Source: Candidatus Micrarchaeota archaeon
GTDB lineage: Archaea > Micrarchaeota > Micrarchaeia > Micrarchaeales > CABMGC01
NCBI GenBank assembly: GCA_964419095.1
Contig: CAYQOG010000003.1
Location: 1 to 48,196, forward strand
Direction: 5' to 3'
Length of the DNA: 48,196 nucleotides
Shown: one piece after another, positions 5,269 to 48,170 of the stretch
Position numbering within the stretch: the first letter of the stretch is position 1
Layout: every line of letters begins with the position of its first letter
Translations under genes and position numbers: made by a program
Notes under the pieces: generated by a model
Seen by the model: the letters and a program-made list of their open reading frames with translations, nothing else
What the model was told of the DNA's origin: nothing
The model's database searches: none

Positions 5269-5430
5269 TTACTTGTTCGGCTTCATCTCCGTGTAGCCGC
5301 ACTTACCGCACGCGAACCTGTCCTTGTGGTCGCCCATCCTTGCGCCGCATTTAGAGCAGAACTTTGCCGCAGGCTTGTAAGCCTCGATCTTTTTCTTCTT
5401 CGGAGCAGCCTCCTTTTTTGCCTCAGCCAT
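5269..5430 (-). CDS. rps27ae: 30S ribosomal protein S27ae (eS31), missed by the ORF track
   Basis: Manual translation [53 protein letters not shown]; directly downstream of rps24e as usual. Confidence 0.92.
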
Positions 5431-5435
5431 TCAAA

Positions 5436-5774
5436 TCAACCTTTCTTCTCCTCGGCCTTAGCGGCGGGGGTGGCAGCGGCTGGAGCAGCAGGCTGCGCGC
5501 CGGGCTTCGCCTTCTTCTCCTTCTCCTTCTTCGCGAACTTGTCCATGGATTCCTTGCTGTTGTATGAGTATGCCACTACCTCGCTTGTCCTTATCCCGTA
5601 GTTCTGGTCTATCCTTATAATCTGGAAGGTATCAGGGTTCAGGTTCAGCTTCTTGCAGACGCCTTCCGCTATCTCCGCCCTGCCCGGCGTCTTCCCTTCG
5701 TAAGCAGCATGTACTGCGAGCTCCCTCCTCTCGAAGAGCTTGTTCTCCTTGTCATCGTTTATCGTTATTTCCAT
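5436..5774 (-). CDS. rps24e: 30S ribosomal protein S24e
   Basis: ENKLFERRE, TPGRAEI, followed by S27ae. Confidence 0.9.
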   Translation of the reverse strand: MEITINDDKENKLFERRELAVHAAYEGKTPGRAEIAEGVCKKLNLNPDTFQIIRIDQNYGIRTSEVVAYSYNSKESMDKFAKKEKEKKAKPGAQPAAPAAATPAAKAEEKKG

Positions 5775-13775: not shown

Positions 13776-13940
13776 TTAAATCGACTTCTCATCCGAGTAT
13801 TCGTCCTTGAATTTGACGTTTGGTGGAGCCGCCTTTCCGCACTTCTTGCAGTATATCGTCTTGTCTCCGATGTATCTCATGAATTGCGTGCTTCCGCACT
13901 CGCATGCATATTGGGCTATGGCCATTTGCTCACTAAACAT
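13776..13940 (-). CDS. Small Zn-ribbon microprotein (54 aa), missed by the ORF track
   Basis: MFSEQMAIAQYACECGSTQFMRYIGDKTIYCKKCGKAAPPNVKFKDEYSDEKSI; start overlaps the 3' end of the upstream gene. Confidence 0.75.
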   Translation of the reverse strand: MFSEQMAIAQYACECGSTQFMRYIGDKTIYCKKCGKAAPPNVKFKDEYSDEKSI

Positions 13941-14757
13941 GTGTTGCGGGCTGGACCAGTGCGACCCTCTCCTGCCGTCCGCTCGCGAGCCTCCTTACCA
14001 TCTTAAGTATTTCGTCTGCCTCGTATTTCCACTCCTCGGCTGCGGAAAGCTCTTTCTTTCCAACATATCTGCGTGAAAGGTCCCTTTCTTCCTGGCAAAT
14101 GAGCAGCAGAAGCCTCAGCAGTTCACGCTTCGTCGCCTCTGCACCAATGCTTTGCAGTGATTTTCCAGCATCGAACATCCCGCGATCCAGTTCTATCGCC
14201 CTTTCCTTTAGGTCTGTTATGCGCTTCAGGCTCTCTCTGGCATACAGATCAATTATGGCATCCTCATCAATTCTGGGCGGGGGTAATTCCGTTCTCGTAT
14301 GCTTCCCATCCCTCCTGTTTCTTATATGGCTTAAATCCGGTGGAGGAGTTGGCTTCTTTGATTTCTTCTGCCTTAGTGTAGGAGCGGTTGTCCGGCTGCC
14401 ATTGGAGGAGTGGCTAGCATGCAGCTGCTCCTCATTCTGATCTGCTTGCCCCTGCAACTTTTTGATCCTTGCATATACTGCCGGAGTGGTAACCTTGAAT
14501 CTTCTCGAAAAGTCAGAGATGGACATTCCGCCATTCTGTATGAGCTTGCGTACGTCATCGTCACTGAATTTTCGCCTGTGGCGTGGGGCGGAGCGCGCAA
14601 ATCCATTACTTTCAAGTTTAGCTCTGGGAGCGCTCTTCCTTGCAGTAGCTGCCTTTTTGGTTGCAGGACTTTTATCACTGCCCCTTCTGGCGTGAGTTAG
14701 CGCCGGGTCTGCGGCCTGTGTTTTGCGGATAGGTCTCCTTGTAGATGTACGTTCCAA
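13933..14757 (-). CDS. Hypothetical HTH DNA-binding protein with basic disordered regions
   Basis: MSISDFSRRFKVTTPAVYARIKKL HTH pattern flanked by K/R/S/P-rich segments. Confidence 0.7.
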   Translation of the reverse strand: MERTSTRRPIRKTQAADPALTHARRGSDKSPATKKAATARKSAPRAKLESNGFARSAPRHRRKFSDDDVRKLIQNGGMSISDFSRRFKVTTPAVYARIKKLQGQADQNEEQLHASHSSNGSRTTAPTLRQKKSKKPTPPPDLSHIRNRRDGKHTRTELPPPRIDEDAIIDLYARESLKRITDLKERAIELDRGMFDAGKSLQSIGAEATKRELLRLLLLICQEERDLSRRYVGKKELSAAEEWKYEADEILKMVRRLASGRQERVALVQPATHV

Positions 14758-14783: not shown

Positions 14784-16046
14784 TCATCCCTTATAAGATT
14801 TATCTTCCAGATGAAGCACTTTCTTTACTTTGGATATCGCATCGACGGCCCTGTCAACGTCCTGCTCAGTAGTGTATAGATAGAAGCTCATCCTTGCCAC
14901 CGATACCTCTCCAAGAACCTGGTTTACCAGCGGCATTGCGCAGTGATGCCCAGCCCTTATGGCAACGCCTTCGCTGTCGAATATAGTCGCCACATCGTGG
15001 GGATGCGCTCCTCTTATGTTGAATGATATTACGCCGCCCCTTCTTTCAATATCTTTTATGCCTGATCCATAAACCGTAACACCTTCAATTTCCGCGAGTC
15101 TTTTCAAAGCGTACTTTGTGACCTTTATCTCGTGGTCCCTTATTCTCTGCATTCCTATCTTGTTGAGATACTCTATTGCTGCGCCGAGTCCTATCCCTCC
15201 CTCCATGTTCGGTGTGCCAGATTCGAACTTCCATGGAAGCTCGTTCCAGTCCGCAGACTCGAATGTCACCGTTCTTATCATATCGCTGCCGACTATCGCA
15301 GGAGTGGTCTGCTCAAGGAGCTCGTCTTTCCCGTAGAGAACTCCGACTCCTGCAGGTCCCAGCATTTTATGACTTGAGAAGCCCATGAAGTCACATCCCA
15401 TCTCCTTGACGTTAACAGGCATGTGAGGCACCGATTGTGCCGCATCAAGAAATACCATAGCGCCTGCTTCATGGGCAAGCCTTGTCATCTCCTTCGAGTT
15501 GTTTATCGTCCCGAGGACGTTGGATGCATGCGTGAACGCAACCATCTTCGGCTTTGACTTTAGCTTTTCCTTGAAATCATCCATGTCCACGAATGACTTG
15601 TCCTTCAGCTTCACGTGATCGAGGATCGCCTTCTTCCTTTTTGCGAGCATGAGCCATGGAACTATGTTGCTGTGGTGTTCCATGTCCGTTATCAGGATAT
15701 GGTCGCCCCTTTTTATGTTCGGCTCTCCCCATGAGAGCGCGACTATGTTGACCGCATCGGTGGCGTTCCTGCAGTACACTATGTCCCTGTAAGAATCCGC
15801 GCCTATGAACTTCGCTGCAAGCTCCTTGGACCTTGAATACTCTTCCGTGGACTTCATTGAGATTTCGTAGAGCCCCCTGTGTATGTTTGAGTTGTAGGTT
15901 TTGTAGTACTCTGAAACCTTGTTTATTACTTGGTTTGGCTTCTGTGAAGTGGATGCGCTGTCCAGATAAGTAAGCGGCTTTCCGTGGCTCGTTGTGGAGA
16001 GAATAGGAAAATCCTTTCTTATGCTATTTGCATCAAGCTCTGGCAT
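14784..16046 (-). CDS. sufS: Cysteine desulfurase SufS
   Basis: YLDSASTSQKP, FSSHKMLGP, IRAGHHCA. Confidence 0.96.
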   Translation of the reverse strand: MPELDANSIRKDFPILSTTSHGKPLTYLDSASTSQKPNQVINKVSEYYKTYNSNIHRGLYEISMKSTEEYSRSKELAAKFIGADSYRDIVYCRNATDAVNIVALSWGEPNIKRGDHILITDMEHHSNIVPWLMLAKRKKAILDHVKLKDKSFVDMDDFKEKLKSKPKMVAFTHASNVLGTINNSKEMTRLAHEAGAMVFLDAAQSVPHMPVNVKEMGCDFMGFSSHKMLGPAGVGVLYGKDELLEQTTPAIVGSDMIRTVTFESADWNELPWKFESGTPNMEGGIGLGAAIEYLNKIGMQRIRDHEIKVTKYALKRLAEIEGVTVYGSGIKDIERRGGVISFNIRGAHPHDVATIFDSEGVAIRAGHHCAMPLVNQVLGEVSVARMSFYLYTTEQDVDRAVDAISKVKKVLHLEDKSYKG

Positions 16047-16050
16047 TTCA

Positions 16051-16776
16051 TCACTTTACTTCGTATCCCTCCTTCTCTATCTTCTCTATCAGCTCCTTGC
16101 CCCCTTCCCTCACTATCTTGCCGTCATGCATGACGTGTATGAACTGCGGAGACATATAATTGAGTATCCTGCTGTAGTGTGTTATCACGAGAAGTCCGAG
16201 TCCTGTCTTCTTCTGCAGCAGGTTTATGCTCTGCGCTACGACCTTTACAGCATCAACGTCGAGTCCAGAATCCGGTTCATCGAGTATGGCGATCTTTGGC
16301 TTGAGCACCGACATCTGCAGTATCTCTGTTTTCTTCTTCTCCCCTCCGGAGAATCCGAAGTTGAGCGACCTTCCTATGAGGTCTTCCTTTATCTTCAGGT
16401 CCTTGGATGTGTCCTTTACTTCGGTGAGAAAATCCTTGAATGACTGGGTGTTCCCAACAGCCCCTCTTGCAGTGTTGAGGAAATTCATGAGTCCCAATCC
16501 TTCTATCTCGGTGGGATTCTGGAATTCGAGGAATATTCCCTTCTTTGCGCGTTCGTTCGGCTTGAGGTCCTTTATGTTCTCCCCGTCAATGAGTATGTCC
16601 CCTTTTGTTATCTTCAGCTGCGGATGCCCCATTATCGCCTTTGCAAGCGTGGTCTTCCCGGAACCGTTAGGTCCCATGAGGACATGCTGCTCTCCCTCCT
16701 TTATCTTGAGACTTACGCCTTTGACTATCTCCTTTCCCTCCGCTTCCACATACAGATCTTTTAGTTCCAACAACAT
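16051..16776 (-). CDS. sufC: Fe-S assembly ATPase SufC
   Basis: GPNGSGKT, GFSGGEKKK, LDEPDSGLD. Confidence 0.96.
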   Translation of the reverse strand: MLLELKDLYVEAEGKEIVKGVSLKIKEGEQHVLMGPNGSGKTTLAKAIMGHPQLKITKGDILIDGENIKDLKPNERAKKGIFLEFQNPTEIEGLGLMNFLNTARGAVGNTQSFKDFLTEVKDTSKDLKIKEDLIGRSLNFGFSGGEKKKTEILQMSVLKPKIAILDEPDSGLDVDAVKVVAQSINLLQKKTGLGLLVITHYSRILNYMSPQFIHVMHDGKIVREGGKELIEKIEKEGYEVK

Positions 16777-16781
16777 TCAAT

Positions 16782-18020
16782 TCACCTTGAAGGCCTCTGC
16801 ACGACCCATACGTTCCTCGGAGTTATCTCCGAAAGTATGCCATAGGTCTTCTTGTCAAGCTTGTCAAGCATAACCGACATTGCGATCTCCCTCGCAAAGG
16901 GACTCGTGATCTTTGATATGTACTTTGAAATAAACGCCGCGACGAAGAGCTTCCTAGCCTGCGATTCCTCTATTCCCCTTGATGTGAGGTAGAATAGAGC
17001 GTCGGGGTCTATCGGTGCTGTCGATGCCGAGTGCGATGCCTTAACCTCGTTGCTGTAATCTATTGAAAGATCAGGCAGCGCGTCCATGTGCGCATCCTTG
17101 CTGAGAAGTATTCCTTTTTCCACTATCGTTGATACGGATCCCCGTGTTTTGTCCGCAACCTTTGCGAATCCCTTGAGCATGCATTTCGAGAGATCGTCGA
17201 GTATCACTCCAGATTCAAGCGAGACAGTGCTCTTTGGCGTTGAGTTTATTACCGCATTGTCGAGGTCGAATTGCTGCGATGAAATTCCGAATGCGAGTTC
17301 CGTTACTTCTACCCTGCTCGCAATTCCCCTTGCATCCAGCACGGACCTTGCCTTTGTAGCTTCACCCCCGCAGTATACGGAGTTCAGCAATAGCTGCGCT
17401 TGCTCTCCTGTGTTCCCCTTGCAGAGATTCACTACGGTAGTATTGGCATTCTCGTTATGCAGTGCATTGAGCTCGAGTATCGAGTTATTTTGGCACTGCA
17501 GTTCGTGAAGAACCGATAGGGTGGCCTTTTCGTTTGCAGTGGAGAGATAGAATTCAGATACGTCTGCCTTCGCCGCTTCCCCTGCATTGACCAGTACCTG
17601 TGCAGAGAGGTTGCCGCTGTTTACGAATAGGATGTTTAGGCTCGCCCTCCGGTTATTCTGCACGTCTATGGTCACAAAATACTTTGCATTCGCATTAACG
17701 TATGCCGCAAGCTTATCATCGCTGCTCTTGAATATCTTGTTCTGGAGCAGGTTGTTGTCGAACTCCTCAGCCTTTGTTATACTTACAAGCGGATTCGTGC
17801 TTGTTGCATAAGAATCAGTGATCACTGCATCAAACTTTATTCGTGTCTTCTCTGAAATCTGGCTTACCATCTTTTCCAGTCCGGCCTTTCCATCGGCATT
17901 TGCAACAAGTTCCTCGGGAAGAACCATGACCACGCTGTATTTCTTATAGAGATCATTCATCTCTAGAGGCAACTCTCTGTAATATTGCATGGCTTCCTTT
18001 ACGAAATCAGAGTAGGACAT
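16782..18020 (-). CDS. sufD: Fe-S assembly protein SufD
   Basis: ALPDLSI, EVKASHSAS, LFYLTSRGI; lies between sufB and sufC. Confidence 0.88.
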   Translation of the reverse strand: MSYSDFVKEAMQYYRELPLEMNDLYKKYSVVMVLPEELVANADGKAGLEKMVSQISEKTRIKFDAVITDSYATSTNPLVSITKAEEFDNNLLQNKIFKSSDDKLAAYVNANAKYFVTIDVQNNRRASLNILFVNSGNLSAQVLVNAGEAAKADVSEFYLSTANEKATLSVLHELQCQNNSILELNALHNENANTTVVNLCKGNTGEQAQLLLNSVYCGGEATKARSVLDARGIASRVEVTELAFGISSQQFDLDNAVINSTPKSTVSLESGVILDDLSKCMLKGFAKVADKTRGSVSTIVEKGILLSKDAHMDALPDLSIDYSNEVKASHSASTAPIDPDALFYLTSRGIEESQARKLFVAAFISKYISKITSPFAREIAMSVMLDKLDKKTYGILSEITPRNVWVVQRPSR

Positions 18021-18037: not shown

Positions 18038-19450
18038 TTAGCCTATTCCCTTGCTTGTATCGAGCTTTATGAGCCTCTTCAGTTCGAGGGAATACTCGAG
18101 AGGCAAAACCTTTGTAAGATCGTCTATGAATCCAAGCACTATCATCGCTATCGCATCGTCTTCCGGGATTCCCCTCGACATCAGGTAGAATATATCGTCA
18201 TCGCTTATCTTTCCGACCTTAGCTTCGTGGCTTATCACGGCGTCGCTCCTGTTGATCTGGTTGTACGGATAAGTGTTTGTCTTCGCCTTATCATCAAGAA
18301 GCAGCGCGTCGCATGAGACGTGAGCTTTAACATTAGCGGCATTCTTGGCAACATGCATAAGACCTCTGAATGTCGTAACCCCGGTTCCCTTTGATACGCT
18401 TTTTGAGACTATCTTTGAGGTAGTGTTAGATGCGAGATGATAGATCTTTCCCCCGGAATCTTGAATCTGCCCATCTCCTGCTATTGCAATTGATAGAACT
18501 TCCCCGCGCGCATGCTCTCCCATCAAGTATATTGATGGGTACTTTTCGTTAACCTTACTGCCTATATTTGCATCAATCCATTCAACACGTGCGTTTTTTG
18601 CAGCGTGCGCTCTTTGCGTAACAAGATTGTAAATATTCTTTGACCAATTCTGAATTGTAACGTATCTTATGTGCGCTCCTTCAAGTGCGACAAGTTCTAC
18701 TACAGCCGCATGCAGCGAGTCTTTCTTGTATACAGGCGCGGTACAGCCCTCCACGTAGCACACATCAGCGCCCTCGTCTGCGATGATAAGAGTCCTCTCA
18801 AACTGCCCTGCATTCATGGCATTGATTCTGAAGTAGGCATTGAGCGGCATGGGCACTTTGACACCTTTTGGCACATATATGAAACTTCCGCCTGACCATG
18901 TTGCAGTATTTAGTGCTGCAAACTTGTTATCAGTAGGGGGAATTATGGTTCCCCAGTACTTCTTGAATATTTCGGGGTATTTCTTTATTGCAGTATCAGT
19001 ATCGGTGAAGATTATTCCAAGTTTCTCCAGCTCTTCGTTTATATGCGAGTAGACTACTCCGCTATCGAATTGGGCTTCTGCACCAGAGAAGAACTTCCTC
19101 TCTGCCTCTGGGACTCCGAGCTTGTCAAACGTGTCCTTGATCTCCTTTGGGACATCCTCCCAGTTGTTTGCCTCCTTGGACTTTGGCATCAGGTAATAAT
19201 AGTACTCGTTGAAATCGATAGCGCTGAGATCCACGCCCCATGTTGGGACGGGTTTGCTCTGAAAGACCCTGAAGCCAGTGAGTCTCTTCTCGAGCATCCA
19301 TTCCGGTTCTCCCTTAAGTTTGGATATCTTCCTGACTATATCTTCTGAGAGACCTCTTGGAAAGTCCTCATACTCGATCTTCTTGCTGAATCCATATCTT
19401 TCAATATATTCATTCTTGTCTACTACTTCCTCCAAACCCTCGTTTACCAT
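18038..19450 (-). CDS. sufB: Fe-S assembly protein SufB
   Basis: GQFERTLII, YVEGCTAP, LHAAVVE, HEAKVGKI, FYLMSRG. Confidence 0.96.
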   Translation of the reverse strand: MVNEGLEEVVDKNEYIERYGFSKKIEYEDFPRGLSEDIVRKISKLKGEPEWMLEKRLTGFRVFQSKPVPTWGVDLSAIDFNEYYYYLMPKSKEANNWEDVPKEIKDTFDKLGVPEAERKFFSGAEAQFDSGVVYSHINEELEKLGIIFTDTDTAIKKYPEIFKKYWGTIIPPTDNKFAALNTATWSGGSFIYVPKGVKVPMPLNAYFRINAMNAGQFERTLIIADEGADVCYVEGCTAPVYKKDSLHAAVVELVALEGAHIRYVTIQNWSKNIYNLVTQRAHAAKNARVEWIDANIGSKVNEKYPSIYLMGEHARGEVLSIAIAGDGQIQDSGGKIYHLASNTTSKIVSKSVSKGTGVTTFRGLMHVAKNAANVKAHVSCDALLLDDKAKTNTYPYNQINRSDAVISHEAKVGKISDDDIFYLMSRGIPEDDAIAMIVLGFIDDLTKVLPLEYSLELKRLIKLDTSKGIG

Positions 19451-19458
19451 ACAATCAC

Positions 19459-19785
19459 TCAGATTCCGGCCTTTGAGAACTTGCAGTCGAAATTGTTCCC
19501 CTTCCTGCATATTGTGCAGATTGCCGCATTGGCATATTCCTTCTTTCCCTGCGCGATCATGCTTATCTTGTTCGCTATCGATGCCATGTCAACGCCCTTC
19601 TCCACGTCCTTTATCGCCTTTGAATATTTCCCTGAGAGGTATTTGCTTACCGCAGCCTGCGCAACGCCCAATTGGCTTGCTATCTCCTGCTCCGTCATCT
19701 GGTAGCGCTCCTTCAATTCTCTTGCGATTATCGAGCGCGCTGCAGGTATCATCAGCTTTGACGCCCTTGCGTATCCGTTGGTCAT
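19459..19785 (-). CDS. XRE-type HTH transcriptional regulator with a Cys-rich tail
   Basis: MTEQEIASQLGVAQAAVSKYL HTH; C-terminal CTIC-x7-C; first gene of the suf operon. Confidence 0.85.
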   Translation of the reverse strand: MTNGYARASKLMIPAARSIIARELKERYQMTEQEIASQLGVAQAAVSKYLSGKYSKAIKDVEKGVDMASIANKISMIAQGKKEYANAAICTICRKGNNFDCKFSKAGI

Positions 19786-19796
19786 CGACTGGCCCT

Positions 19797-19813
19797 TTAT
19801 AACTCAGTTATAA
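19797..19813. promoter_or_regulatory. Palindromic operator candidate TTATAACT-C-AGTTATAA
   Basis: Perfect 8-1-8 inverted repeat between the TATA box (~19833-19840, minus strand) and the regulator ATG. Confidence 0.7.
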
Positions 19814-19865
19814 TTAGTATGCCATAAGCAACTTTATATACCTTGTTACGGGGGTTGGCAATTGT

Positions 19866-20215
19866 TCAGCTACCCGTGGTGTAGCGGAAGACGCAGAAGG
19901 TCGTGGTTGGCCTTACCGTTGTAGTTGGTCTCGTTGTTGTTGGTCCTACCGTGGTAGTAGGCCTTGTCGTAGTTGATCTCCCGGAGTTGCGGTGTGCGTA
20001 GTCGTAGCGGTTGAGGATGTGCTGGTGCTGGTTGTTGCGACCGTTGTTGTAGAAGCGAGCGTCGTTGTGGATATGCTGGTTGGGTGGTTGTTGAGGATGA
20101 AGATATGACATTGACTGTAGTCTTCGAAAGCATGGTCGTTGTAGGCATGGTAGTGCGGTGGACCCTCAGTAGTAATTCTCGGACTGAAGCCCTGAGTTGC
20201 TAGGAGAAACGGCAC
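19866..20215 (-). pseudogene. Degenerate Thr/Ser-rich (mucin-like stalk) coding remnant
   Basis: Thr-rich translation passes successively through three frames; ends in RPTTT/GPTTT repeats. Confidence 0.55.
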
Positions 20216-20248
20216 TCCTGTAAGTTTCCCAATGGCAATGCATGCGGA

Positions 20249-23200
20249 TCAGCGCCTGAAGGAACTCCTCCCTCTCCTGATACGGTAGGCGAAGAAAATC
20301 AGCAGGGCGCTGAGCACTGCGGCGAGGGCGTAAATCCACGGCCAACCAAACCATTCCTGCTGCTGGCTTTTTCCGGCTGCCTGGCTCGTCCCCGCTGGGG
20401 AGAGCGATCGTTCGAATATGCCCACCACATGACCGTTCTGCGCCGGAAACTCTATCCTGCACGGATTCTGCAGCACCACTGCGTTGTAGACCTGCTGCCA
20501 CGTGCCGTTTACATAGGCGAAAGGCACCACCCCCGGATTGAGGCTGCAGTTGTACTCTATGGTGGTGTTGACCGTGAGATTGCCCGAGGGCGTCGCGCTC
20601 ACCGCGAAGACGAATATCTTCGAATAGTTGACTGGTGCAGTCGACTGGGGTGTCTCATTCTTCACAGAGATTCGAACCTGCTGGCTGCTCTGGTTGCTGC
20701 TGCTTATCTTAAGCGTCATGAAAGGCGTTACGTTGAGCTGCACCGGAGCGTTCGCCGATACGGTCAGTATGTTAGACACATAGCCGCTGACGGTCGTTGT
20801 CGGTGCCGCTGTAGTGGCCGGCACGGTTGTCCGCACAGTGCTTTGTTCAGCGGTTGTGCTCGCCGTAACTGTTGCCGTAGACGACGCCGAGGTGCCGGCA
20901 TTCTGCCTGAGCGTGTATATGGCCTCTATGCTGGCTATGCCTGTCTGGTACGTCTGATTGCAGACTGCCCCATACCCAAGGCCGTAAGCGTCGTGCTGGT
21001 AGTCATAGACATTGCCGTTTATGGTCACGCTGCAGGCAAAGCTGACAGACGCGAGCGATCCGGTGTAAGTTGCCCCTGCAGGAAGCTGGTTCTGGTAATA
21101 GTGCTGCGAGTCCACAGTGAATACAGGGGCCGCTGACGCAGAGTTAGAGTTTATATTGTCCGATATCGAGATGGCGGATGGCTGCGGCACGCCTGCCCCG
21201 CCACCGCCTGCCGTTGGGGAAGGCGCTGCAGAAACAATTACATTTGCCGCAACAGAATTTGCTGTTGACTGGCCTGAAGCTGCATGCAGCACGAACCAGT
21301 ATGTGCCTGTTGCCGTGCCTGTGGAAGTAGCAAAGATTGCATTCTGCGATTGCGCAAGCCCATTCGAGGTCCCTGTGCCAAGCAGGGTGTTCGCCTCTGC
21401 TGCATTTGCAGATGTCGCTGCGGGTATGGCTCCAAGCGCCGCGTACCACTGATAGGTGTACGGGCCGATGCCTCCCGATGCATTTGAGGATATCTCAGCT
21501 GTGCTGCCCTGGGTCACGGACTGCATGAGCGGAGATGGCATGGAAACCGAAAGCTTCAGTATTGAGGAGGAGACCGATGATTCTGAAACAGAGGACCGTA
21601 TCCTGAACCACTGTGCGTGCACATACTTGTCATTCCACCACGATCCAAAGAATGGATGGAAGCCGTTGTAAGTGGTGTCGTTGTGGCCCACTATGGGCAT
21701 GTACTGCACCTCGCCCTGTATCTGGTTTGATCCTAGCGTCAGCGTTATCGCGTTGTACGTTGAGGCTATCTCCGTGTTAGGAGACATGTCGGTGCTCACT
21801 CCCCCGGCGTACTTGACCAGGTCGAAGTCGCTGACAGATAATCCTGATATCTGGTACCCGTTCTGAAAAGAGTTGGTGGTGTCAGCATATCCCAGGTCAT
21901 ATACGGGCGCTGTTCCCGTCACTGCGGCAAGCTCATCTATGGAGACAGGCCTTCCATACGTGGCGTTTAGCGTTACCTGGTCCTGGTTTGTGGTACCTGT
22001 ACCGGTGAATGATATCCCGTTGTCAACGACTAGGTTCGCGGCGTCCGTGGTATTGAATCCAGCGGGCATTGTGTTGCCTGCGAAGTTGTAATAGGCTGTG
22101 AACACCTTCGCGCCGTTGTCATACTGCGCGTAGATGCCGTTGCAGGACATCGCGTTGGCATTCGAGCAGCTCAGCTGGGGCGCCTCTCCCACGAAGTTGC
22201 CGTCAAGGAGGACGTTGTCTGTAGGACCGAAGACCAAGTACGCCACGTTAGACACTGCATTCCCCGTGTCTGCGGTCAGAAACGTGTTTGAGGGCGTGTC
22301 GAACCAGTAGATTACGTTGCTTGAGCTGGAGAGCGTCGCCGGCAGCGAGTTCTCCTCGTTCATTAGATTTCCTTCAAGCCAGGAATATGCAACGGTTCCG
22401 TTGGAGAACGCTATCGCAGTGTTGTTGAGCGTGTTCGACTCCTCAGACGCGTAGGCAAGCGCGTTGAAGCTTATCATGAGCGACGTGTTTGCAGGCACTG
22501 CAGTCGCCTGCGTGCTGGTGAGCTTGAATGCCACGGTGCTGTCCGCCGTGATCCTGCGCACATAGGCATTGTTGGAAGCCAGCCCCGATGTTATGTCGTT
22601 TGCGAATAGTGCCGTGGAGCCCGGGTCGAGCGAATTATAGGCTATGCTGACAGTGTTGGCTGCAGAAGCTAGCACATTGCCTGAGGAGCTCTCTATCTCG
22701 CATGTATCCCCCGAGGCGCATGTGGCCGTAATAAGTGCGTTGTCGGATGGTGAGCCTATCAGGACGTCGATGGCGTTGGAGGCTATCGAGTTCGCAAGGC
22801 TCAGGGATGGCTGCAGCCTGATGCTGCCGAACTGTGCGTCAGGCATGGTGCCGCCAGGCGGATAAGACCTCATCCTGAACCACTGCGCATGGATCGTCTG
22901 GTTGTTGTTGACGTAGAGCATCGGATATGCTGCTGCGGCGGTATTGACCGAGGAGCTCGATTCCGTGACCGAGTAGTTCCAGGTGGCGATCCCGTTCGTT
23001 CCCTGCCAGCTGTCGGAGGCCACATACGGGCCGCCCGGATTCAATGAGTACCTGGCATTGCTTCCGGCGCCGTTGGTGACATAGACCATCTCGAACCTGG
23101 GCGGCGTCCCCCCTCCAGCTCCTGCGAGCACCGCGTTTCCGGTGATCCCCCACCATCCGGAGTTGGTTCCTGAATCTCCGGTTGTGCTGAATCCCACCAG

Positions 23201-23935
23201 CTCATCCGAGCTTCGGGTGCTTGAAAGTATGTAACTGTCTATGACGTTGCCGGTGGGCAAGACCGTTGACCCTTCATAGATTGCGGCGCTCTCGCCTGAG
23301 GCGCTGTAGAGCGTTATGCCGTTGTCTATTGAGAGGGTGGAGCTCACCCCAGCATAGGTCCATCCTGCCGGCGCTGCGGATGAGACTCCCTGAAAATTAA
23401 GGTATAACGGAAAGACGTTCGCGCCGTTGTCGTACTGCGCGTAGATGCCGTTGCATGTTATCGTGTTGACCGTGTTCCCGCTACCTGAGCATGAGAGCTG
23501 CGGCGCCTCTCCAGTAATGGTGTTGCTGAACTCGTTGACCGCGGTTGGAAAGAAGCCCATGTATATCGTATTGGCTGAGTTTGCCGCAAGGAAGGTACTC
23601 GCAGGGTATATCCTGAGCCAGTAGACCGTATTTGCCGATGTATAGAGGCTATTGGTCTGTTGCTCGTTGAGCGCGTTGCCCTCCATCCATGAAGGGATTA
23701 CTGTTCCGTTAGAATAGAAGAACTCGATGTTCTGCAGGTTCGGGGCCTCGTAGCTCTTGTACGCCAGCGAATTGACAGTGAGCATGATCTGCGAGTTCTG
23801 CGTCAATGCTATGTTCTGCTGGTTCGTCAGCGTTACAGGCAGATCCCCCGCAAGCCCGCCAGGCGCCCCGCCTGCAAACACAAGTGTAGAGAGGATAAGC
23901 AAAGGAAGAAGCATATCCAGTAACTTGAGACCCAT
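20249..23935 (-). CDS. Large membrane-anchored surface protein with a duplicated DUF2341-like/beta-rich module
   Basis: Signal peptide; two repeats (SWxEGN...GEAPQLSC...CNGIYAQYDNGA...HAQWFRxRS); Thr-rich linker; C-terminal TM and Arg-rich tail. Confidence 0.85.
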   Translation of the reverse strand: MGLKLLDMLLPLLILSTLVFAGGAPGGLAGDLPVTLTNQQNIALTQNSQIMLTVNSLAYKSYEAPNLQNIEFFYSNGTVIPSWMEGNALNEQQTNSLYTSANTVYWLRIYPASTFLAANSANTIYMGFFPTAVNEFSNTITGEAPQLSCSGSGNTVNTITCNGIYAQYDNGANVFPLYLNFQGVSSAAPAGWTYAGVSSTLSIDNGITLYSASGESAAIYEGSTVLPTGNVIDSYILSSTRSSDELVGFSTTGDSGTNSGWWGITGNAVLAGAGGGTPPRFEMVYVTNGAGSNARYSLNPGGPYVASDSWQGTNGIATWNYSVTESSSSVNTAAAAYPMLYVNNNQTIHAQWFRMRSYPPGGTMPDAQFGSIRLQPSLSLANSIASNAIDVLIGSPSDNALITATCASGDTCEIESSSGNVLASAANTVSIAYNSLDPGSTALFANDITSGLASNNAYVRRITADSTVAFKLTSTQATAVPANTSLMISFNALAYASEESNTLNNTAIAFSNGTVAYSWLEGNLMNEENSLPATLSSSSNVIYWFDTPSNTFLTADTGNAVSNVAYLVFGPTDNVLLDGNFVGEAPQLSCSNANAMSCNGIYAQYDNGAKVFTAYYNFAGNTMPAGFNTTDAANLVVDNGISFTGTGTTNQDQVTLNATYGRPVSIDELAAVTGTAPVYDLGYADTTNSFQNGYQISGLSVSDFDLVKYAGGVSTDMSPNTEIASTYNAITLTLGSNQIQGEVQYMPIVGHNDTTYNGFHPFFGSWWNDKYVHAQWFRIRSSVSESSVSSSILKLSVSMPSPLMQSVTQGSTAEISSNASGGIGPYTYQWYAALGAIPAATSANAAEANTLLGTGTSNGLAQSQNAIFATSTGTATGTYWFVLHAASGQSTANSVAANVIVSAAPSPTAGGGGAGVPQPSAISISDNINSNSASAAPVFTVDSQHYYQNQLPAGATYTGSLASVSFACSVTINGNVYDYQHDAYGLGYGAVCNQTYQTGIASIEAIYTLRQNAGTSASSTATVTASTTAEQSTVRTTVPATTAAPTTTVSGYVSNILTVSANAPVQLNVTPFMTLKISSSNQSSQQVRISVKNETPQSTAPVNYSKIFVFAVSATPSGNLTVNTTIEYNCSLNPGVVPFAYVNGTWQQVYNAVVLQNPCRIEFPAQNGHVVGIFERSLSPAGTSQAAGKSQQQEWFGWPWIYALAAVLSALLIFFAYRIRRGRSSFRR

Positions 23936-24223
23936 GTTCGCTACCGCTAACAATCCGAGACAAATTTATTTAAATAGAATGGAAGAGCTTCCATAATTTA
24001 TAGACCTCCGCTAAAGTCTTTTGGAAGCCAAGTATCATAAATCTTCTTTTCGTTGGTTCACCACGCCCAGCATGGATATTCGAGACGACTCTCAACAACT
24101 AAACCGGCCTGCCGCTATGGCGGGTTTCTTATTCTCGAAGTGCCCCTTGTCTCTAACCATACGATACTCATATGGACTTTGGATGTGCTTATGTGCCTCG
24201 GAGAATGCGGACGCTTTAAAGTC

Positions 24224-48150: not shown

Positions 48151-48170
48151 CCCACACCTAAAGGTGTGGG
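48151..48170. repeat. Perfect hairpin CCCACACCT-AA-AGGTGTGGG, IS200/IS605-end-like
   Basis: 9-bp inverted repeat in AAGAAC...GGGATTT context at the window edge. Confidence 0.5.

Follow-up and report, generated by a model that had tools for sequence, protein, structure and literature searches.

How a micrarchaeon controls the assembly of its Fe–S clusters is the question raised by a small gene at the head of a suf operon in the window analyzed here—a stretch of 48,196 nucleotides from a Candidatus Micrarchaeota archaeon. To our knowledge, the regulation of Fe–S cluster biogenesis in archaea is largely unknown, and the bacterial paradigms IscR, SufR, and RirA belong to other protein families. 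The initial annotation had read the small gene as an Fe–S-sensing autorepressor and a nearby palindrome as its operator, with regulator, operator, and suf target forming one unit. This unit is borne out by the comparison of relatives: as far as comparison can, it is established as a putative autoregulated unit of HTH protein, operator, and suf genes with a small iron/oxidative-stress regulon. For the full model—an autoregulated repressor of sufBDCS and of iron/oxidative-stress genes whose Cys triad would sense an Fe–S cluster—the chances stand slightly above even.

Organization of the suf locus

The window is contig C3 of a genome of ~874 kb (873,967 bases, 40 contigs, 88% complete, 50% G+C), and its DNA is also contained in mine-drainage metagenomes. 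The operon lies on the minus strand in the order regulator, sufB, sufD, sufC, and sufS. The regulator gene (19459–19785, minus strand) codes for 108 residues featuring an HTH_3-like helix–turn–helix (HTH) and a C-terminal Cys triad, as judged by its open reading frame, Pfam, homologs, and an AF2 model. Its stop codon is separated by 8 nt from the start of sufB (18038–19450, minus strand; TIGR01980, 675 bits), which codes for 470 residues from the ATG at 19450; homolog alignments begin at residue 1 of this start. The genes sufD (16782–18020; Pfam SUFBD_core, 6.9e-41; TIGR01981, 160.6 bits, under the cut-off of 222), sufC (16051–16776; TIGR01978, 301.6 bits), and sufS, coding for the cysteine desulfurase (14784–16046; TIGR01979, 553.9 bits), are all on the minus strand and are spaced by gaps of 4–17 nt.

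Read along the minus strand, the promoter of the operon consists of the TATA box TATATAAA (19840–19833, assigned from reading the sequence), 19 nt, TTATAACTGAGTTATAA at 19813–19797, 11 nt, and the regulator ATG at 19785. The perfect palindrome TTATAACTcAGTTATAA (19797–19813) that had been reported between box and start codon is located exactly there. It can be written as TTATAACT-c-AGTTATAA, has the core TATAAC-N3-GTTATA, belongs to neither strand in particular, and is a candidate operator because of its recurrence at suf promoters. A scan for sigma-70 promoters and terminators was set aside, the host being an archaeon.

Two further genes flank the operon on the same strand. A 274-residue basic protein (13933–14757, minus strand) starts 26 nt past sufS and weakly matches an AsnC-type HTH (below cut-off, E 6.5e-4); its gene may be co-transcribed with the suf operon. 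On the other side, a gene on the minus strand (20249–23953) codes for a protein of 1234 residues that is rich in Thr, Ser, and Ala, is of a secreted or surface type, and has a membrane anchor at its C-terminus; the gene stops 400 bp before the suf promoter, and the spacer between them (19841–20248) is rich in low-complexity repeats of the ACC/ACG type.

Fold and family of the regulator

The AF2 model of the regulator has a mean pLDDT of 87 and is all-helical with six helices. The HTH is formed by helices 32–39 and 43–51 (residues 32–51; 19633–19692, minus strand), delimited by the model helices and by conservation, and carries the recognition-helix motif GVAQAAVSKYL. The C-terminus, ...AAIC90TIC93RKGNNFDC101KFSKAGI, contains the triad C90-x2-C93-x7-C101 (CTIC-x7-C; 19483–19518, minus strand), the presumed sensory site on the grounds of homolog conservation. 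In the model, C90 and C93 are inside the last helix (83–97), and C101 is in the tail. A homodimer prediction gave a score of 0.00 and a mark of 0.42, which counts neither for nor against a dimer.

The initial description of the protein as an XRE-like HTH with three C-terminal cysteines holds. Pfam returns HTH matches only, the best being HTH_3 at 22.1 bits (E 1.6e-4; gathering cut-off 23), and suf-embedded orthologs pass this cut-off (P0045, 28.2 bits; P0084, 27.0 bits), with scores of up to 32.8 bits in other members of the family. The Cys tail is covered by no Pfam model matching the orthologs or the wider members. The best NCBIfam match, TIGR03879, reaches 29.2 bits (9.4e-07) against a cut-off of 65.1, and the regulator is therefore not a member of that family. 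Searching the PDB by sequence yielded marginal HTH matches only (best E 0.031), Foldseek with the model against the PDB nothing at E ≤ 0.001, and the wide VIA-align search at best Z 5.1 over 50 residues of a DeoR HTH with the Cys tail unmatched; a protein atlas search with residues 66–108 gave no usable match. Since sequence and fold searches yield a generic HTH only, the label "XRE-like" is a fair one.

The regulator belongs to a wider family, which may correspond to COG2522. A word-indexed search found 37 homologs at 37–100% identity, and at E ≤ 0.001 an exhaustive one brought up 380 representatives (at 50% identity) of the wider family; neighbors in the protein atlas come from Thermoproteota, Bathyarchaeota, methanogens, and Thermoplasmatota. 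Conservation is high in the HTH: Q43 is invariant, and A44, S47, K48, and Y49 are conserved to at least 90%. Because alignment A2 was chosen by the triad motif, the invariance of its cysteines is a circular result; this does not apply to P14 and Q43, which are invariant in it too, or to its near-invariant AQAAVSKY helix. Most genomes of the window's family contain two paralogs. In the source genome, the Cys-less one (one Cys, similar HTH; G000:C35, ~5360–5680, minus strand) is directly upstream of a glutamate-dehydrogenase-like gene, and no TATAAC-N3-GTTATA is found near it.

Linkage to suf across Micrarchaeota

In a phylum sample of 201 genomes, members of the regulator family occur in 94, including 32 of 35 genomes of the window's own family (f1) and 45 of 56 of its sister family (f2). 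The regulator is directly before sufB in 25 of the 29 best non-self loci, embedded in the operon in one, and unlinked in three, all of the latter in one genus (g4). A second gene order, sufB–sufD–regulator–sufC–sufS, is featured by 14 of 16 further loci, mostly from f2; in genome G039, the regulator precedes a cysteine-desulfurase-like gene. Among 80 named Micrarchaeota records, all 74 triad-bearing loci have suf genes, and five of the six without the exact triad have no suf gene at the locus.

As a check on the original claim, it had been proposed to ask whether homologs conserve the Cys residues, the palindrome, and the linkage to suf; they conserve all three. Of 126 pooled loci, 119 contain the triad; suf genes are on the same strand in 116 of these 119; and TATAAC-N3-GTTATA, with at most one mismatch and no more than 150 bp from the first gene of the operon, is likewise found in 116 of the 119. 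The pooled loci come from related genomes and overlapping sets, with 94 unique promoter windows among the 116. The counts take in the unpublished genomes G197 and G029, and no conclusion rests on either.

Several relatives carry a sufB with a long in-frame insertion (L182/L183 in G019:C8 and G041:C17, L004, L009, L010, L016, L019, L080, and L093). The frames have 879–888 residues compared with 470, the alignment is split near residue 230–250, and the insertion looks like an intein.

The palindrome as candidate operator

The palindrome was rejected as significant by itself, as palindromes with arms of 8 bp are common in the source genome: 92 perfect ones (arms ≥ 8, gap ≤ 3) were matched compared with 35–46 in five shuffles, and nine of 100 shuffles of the window yield a match at ≤ 3 mismatches. 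Its significance lies in the recurrence of the motif, which is rare in the genome and kept at the suf promoters of two families. TATAACNNNGTTATA occurs exactly twice in the 873,967 bases of the genome, where 0.05 copies are expected for independent bases. The motif has 61 sites in 41 f1 genomes versus 5 for the reversed control, and 41 versus 8 in 41 f2 genomes, with 1–6 copies per genome.

Some other palindromes of the source genome are worth recording. CCACACCT-AA-AGGTGTGG or its reverse complement has three copies (window 48152–48169, G000:C30:29, and C32:8346), all near contig ends, as are those of TTGCCTTG-C-CAAGGCAA at C1:22 and C5:37467; these may mark the ends of a repeated or mobile element at which the assembly breaks. 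Two GTTACCT-N3-AGGTAAC palindromes, 37 bp apart at G000:C16:13417–13472, could be the paired operators of another regulator.

The position of the site shifts with gene order. In f1 loci, it is found 11–39 bp before the start of the regulator, and in f2 loci that begin with sufB, it precedes sufB and not the regulator; altogether, it stands before the regulator in 90 regulator-first loci and before sufB in 26 sufB-first loci. The operator hence follows the promoter of the operon rather than the regulator gene. Its spacer is variable (TGA or TCA in 53 of 94 windows), and its flanks diverge. The three triad loci lacking the site (L029, L080, and L093) either have their promoter outside the fetched DNA or an interrupted sufB, and the site missing from L029 is present in the longer locus L094. 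Neither suf nor site was found at five loci of the Cys-less paralog.

Site and regulator are also lost together. Genomes G019, G041, G155, and G100 have kept sufB, contain no member of the regulator family at E ≤ 1e-5, and have no palindrome before sufB; in G155, there is no copy of it even at one mismatch. G033 seemed at first to depart from this pattern, but its operon does contain a regulator, embedded and diverged (30% identity), and its sufB is preceded by an exact site at a distance of 25 bp. In G016, G022, and G128, the suf-embedded member is the only one and the site is still present; the Cys-less paralog is thus not needed for the site. In G024, where the regulator is unlinked from suf, the site is found at sufB, sufS, the regulator, a radical-SAM gene, and a superoxide dismutase (SOD) gene. 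Judging from these patterns of presence and loss, regulator and palindrome very probably form a regulator–operator pair.

Promoter geometry and proposed mechanism

The best TATA-like 8-mer of each unique orthologous promoter was taken as its TATA-like box. In 59 of the 94 unique promoters, this box is centered 24–32 bp upstream of the palindrome center, with a mode of −30, and in the window the distance is 31.5 bp; the start codon is 16–24 bp downstream in 80 of 116 loci. Since archaeal TATA boxes are centered near −26/−27, the predicted transcription start falls inside the palindrome. For the window, the TATA box predicts a start at ~19810, within 19797–19813, so that the palindrome would span from about −3 to +14—in line with the earlier expectation that it covers the start.

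We propose that, in Micrarchaeota, the protein acts as an autoregulated repressor of sufBDCS together with a small iron/oxidative-stress regulon. By analogy, it would presumably be a dimer, and it would bind TATAAC-N3-GTTATA via its HTH_3-type helix–turn–helix. The palindrome, ~27–31 bp downstream of the TATA box, would thereby cover the transcription start, and because of this the bound regulator would block the recruitment of RNA polymerase. Archaeal repressors positioned at the transcription start, such as MDR1, LrpA, and Phr, act in this manner. The position of the site makes it likely that the regulator represses the suf genes. The Cys triad would be the sensory site and would most likely hold an oxygen- or iron-labile Fe–S cluster, the presence of which would be needed for repression, by analogy with holo-form repressors. 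Shortage of clusters or oxidative damage to them would then derepress Fe–S assembly, a ZIP-type importer, superoxide dismutase, and some Fe–S enzymes.

Regulon beyond suf

A genome scan for the palindrome, also suggested at the outset, gave two exact copies, the second being located before a ZIP-like permease. This second copy (G000:C11:8903–8919) is identical over all 17 bp and lies 19 bp before the gene of a 258-residue membrane protein with weak ZupT similarity, relatives of which show a weak Pfam Zip match (32.7 bits; cut-off 35.1). Among the 61 f1 sites, 34 are at regulator/suf promoters and nine precede ZIP-like permeases in eight genomes. Four, in four genomes, precede a radical-SAM protein with an HMPTM zinc ribbon; two, in two genomes, belong to Fe/Mn SOD, one of them divergent from another radical-SAM gene; and two are those at sufB and sufS of G024. 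DoxX and a thioredoxin/glutaredoxin-like gene have one site each, six sites are without a convincing target, and two were left unexamined. In f2, a site precedes a ZIP-like gene in four genomes.

The regulon outside suf is patchy. In the 19 f1 genomes that have the ZIP-like gene, the site is exact in eight, has one mismatch in four and two mismatches in two, and is missing in five; G071, from the same genus as the window, has no site before its ZIP-like gene. Consistent with a regulatory role of the protein over these genes, the 88%-complete source genome contains no match to Fur or Rrf2 and none above cut-off to DtxR.

Some of the other sites stand before proteins of their own interest. The radical-SAM protein at L063, L066, L036, and L052 has ~500–614 residues and an HMPTM-type N-terminal zinc ribbon, contains a CxxxCxxC motif, and presumably resembles the MJ0619/tetraether-synthase group. 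In one f2 genus, a second exact site (L192/L193; G016:C1:45723 and G128:C10:156044) occurs 14 bp before a conserved, uncharacterized 123-residue protein with three cysteines, a possible extra member of the regulon. At L184 (G033:C1:81204–81240), two sites 22 bp apart, one exact and one with one mismatch, are found 35 bp before an uncharacterized 513-residue protein.

The cysteine triad and rival explanations

C93 never varies among the 37 homologs, and C90 and C101 each reach at least 90% conservation. The 182 short family proteins from both searches comprise 84 with CxxC-x7-C, 53 with a CxxC otherwise arranged, and 45 without CxxC. Many members of the window's family have an extra cysteine at −2 (C88, giving CxCxxC), which the nine closest proteins, including the window's own, and the sister family do not have; E6 occurs commonly in the family but not in the window's clade. 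Both were rejected as a conserved fourth ligand, each being missing in part of the family.

An Fe–S cluster as the signal at the triad, proposed by analogy, is a possibility to which we give a little less than an even chance. Three conserved cysteines with a facultative fourth, and the physical coupling to the cluster-making machinery, would favor a cluster, and the C-x2-C-x(n)-C spacing is reminiscent of FNR-type cluster sites. The missing invariant fourth ligand would tell against certainty, as would the location of the CxxC within a predicted helix, an unusual setting for a classical metal knuckle. A thiol-based (peroxide/redox) or a metal-based sensor would match the regulon about equally well.

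Accordingly, two rivals keep the same repressor and operator and differ in what the cysteines do. They might be a metal-free thiol–disulfide switch, in which oxidation of the CxxC, with C101 as resolving or alternative partner, releases the DNA and would induce the oxidative-stress regulon. The regulon is indeed typical of oxidative stress (Fe/Mn SOD, thioredoxin/glutaredoxin-like gene, DoxX, and metal importer), the fourth ligand is not conserved, and archaeal SurR provides a CxxC redox switch as precedent. Yet three cysteines, not two, are conserved over ~30% identity, the fourth Cys two residues upstream in many members makes the pattern more metal- or cluster-like, and the tight coupling is to an Fe–S assembly operon and not to peroxidase or thioredoxin genes, so that we regard such a switch as unlikely. 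Binding of a mononuclear metal by the triad—structural Zn, or Fe(II)/Zn(II) as co-repressor in the manner of Fur/Zur—appears improbable as well. It would fit the most conserved second target, a ZIP-family (ZupT-like) importer and as such a classic target of metal repressors, and the source genome, which has no match to Fur and none above cut-off to DtxR; one distant member of the family also weakly matches the Pfam "zinc- or iron-chelating domain" CxxCxxCC (17.5 bits, below cut-off). Tetrahedral Zn sites, however, normally keep four ligands where three are conserved here, suf operons are not usual members of the Zn (Zur) regulon, and a site that is structural only would receive no signal and would leave the strict coupling to suf unexplained.

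A further rival concerns the palindrome itself, which could be something other than the site of this regulator: a core-promoter element (the TATA-like TTATAA with a leaderless transcript), the site of another factor, or a hairpin in the RNA of the 5′ leader, with a different role for the HTH protein. The half-site TTATAA is TATA-like and is found 12–28 bp before the ATG, and the arms never vary, which makes a covariation test of RNA pairing impossible either way. Against this, a separate canonical TATA/BRE-like box exists upstream at a conserved distance, the site is gone from sufB promoters exactly in the regulator-less genomes, it follows the regulator-containing operon in two gene orders, the motif is rare at 1–6 copies per genome, and an Rfam search of 19400–20300 returned no match. 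We consider this explanation highly improbable.

Comparison with known regulators

Several known systems resemble the proposed autorepressor in parts. SufR is encoded by the first gene of the suf operon, has a palindromic operator in its own promoter, and, as a holo-repressor with a Cys-ligated [4Fe–4S] cluster, represses suf, according to two reports (bioRxiv 10.64898/2025.12.26.696629; PMC6034842). SufR (COG2345) occurs in cyanobacteria and actinobacteria, and putative homologs are proposed to precede suf in some archaea (bioRxiv 10.64898/2025.12.26.696629), the one archaeal proposal that our literature search turned up. The regulator described here is likewise encoded together with suf and has a palindromic candidate operator in the operon promoter, a likeness that is a functional analogy only: it has 108 residues and a single HTH, whereas SufR, as far as these reports describe it, is unrelated, much larger, and composed of two domains. 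A SufR/COG2345-type family is absent from its Pfam and NCBIfam matches, and Micrarchaeota have a 105–125-residue HTH_3-type protein in place of COG2345 SufR.

The IscR/Rrf2 regulators (NsrR, RirA, and RsrR) are small dimers in which the DNA-binding domain is followed by three cysteines and a fourth ligand that varies; they control Fe–S assembly, iron uptake, and stress genes. Their fold is a winged helix, and their cysteines are spaced C-x5/6-C-x5-C with an additional His/Asp/Glu, in contrast to the C-x2-C-x7-C of the regulator. PF02082 (Rrf2) matches neither the regulator at E ≤ 0.1 nor anything else in the genome, whereas all 14 controls are matched, and NsrR appears in VIA-align as a weak structural row only (Z 3.8). 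The early statement that the protein is outside the IscR and SufR families is upheld by Pfam and NCBIfam, neither of which gives an Rrf2 or SufR match. Fnr of the Bacillus subtilis type and E. coli FNR feature a terminal C-x2-C-x(4–7)-C that holds an O2-labile [4Fe–4S] cluster, the fourth ligand of which is remote or not a Cys. The regulator shares such a short terminal motif, whereas Fnr/FNR have the CRP/FNR fold with a C-terminal HTH, and Pfam, Foldseek, and VIA-align show no relation in sequence or fold.

Similar in the DNA-binding part are XRE/Cro-C1 (HTH_3) proteins such as the controller protein C.Esp1396I, with an HTH that is probably of the same type; known members bind short palindromes as dimers and regulate themselves, as proposed for the regulator. 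They are the best Foldseek rows for the regulator, although weak (E ~0.8; TM 0.33–0.44), and known members have neither its long N-terminal helix nor its C-terminal Cys triad. TIGR03879 (near_KaiC_dom, "probable regulatory domain") is an uncharacterized archaeal HTH domain like that of the regulator, but has KaiC-like genes as its context. In the accessible parts of open-access papers and preprints (including PMC9628965), no description of the regulator family or of a Micrarchaeota suf regulator was found. The protein appears to represent a type of suf regulator that had not been described before, a candidate autorepressor of suf in which a Cys-based sensor is joined to an archaeal scaffold of the HTH_3 type.

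Implications

The sequence data define the regulator, a predicted operator of 15–17 bp that is near-invariant across two families of genomes, the target operon, and a small regulon to which a metal importer, SOD, and radical-SAM enzymes belong. With 108 residues, the protein makes the hypothesis directly testable, even though the hosts are uncultured DPANN archaea of mine drainage. Tentatively, and with the balance leaning somewhat against so broad a reading, the regulator could be the founding member of a new archaeal Fe–S-cluster-sensing class with an HTH_3 fold and a C-terminal Cys3 site, the master regulator of Fe–S, iron, and oxidative-stress functions in Micrarchaeota, which would have no Fur, DtxR, or Rrf2 regulators, and its wider family a large unrecognized set of metal/redox sensors. 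If true, the design of a three-Cys sensor and an HTH within the suf operon would have arisen by convergent evolution, and the regulator may provide a handle on the wider, uncharacterized family of archaeal HTH–CxxC proteins.
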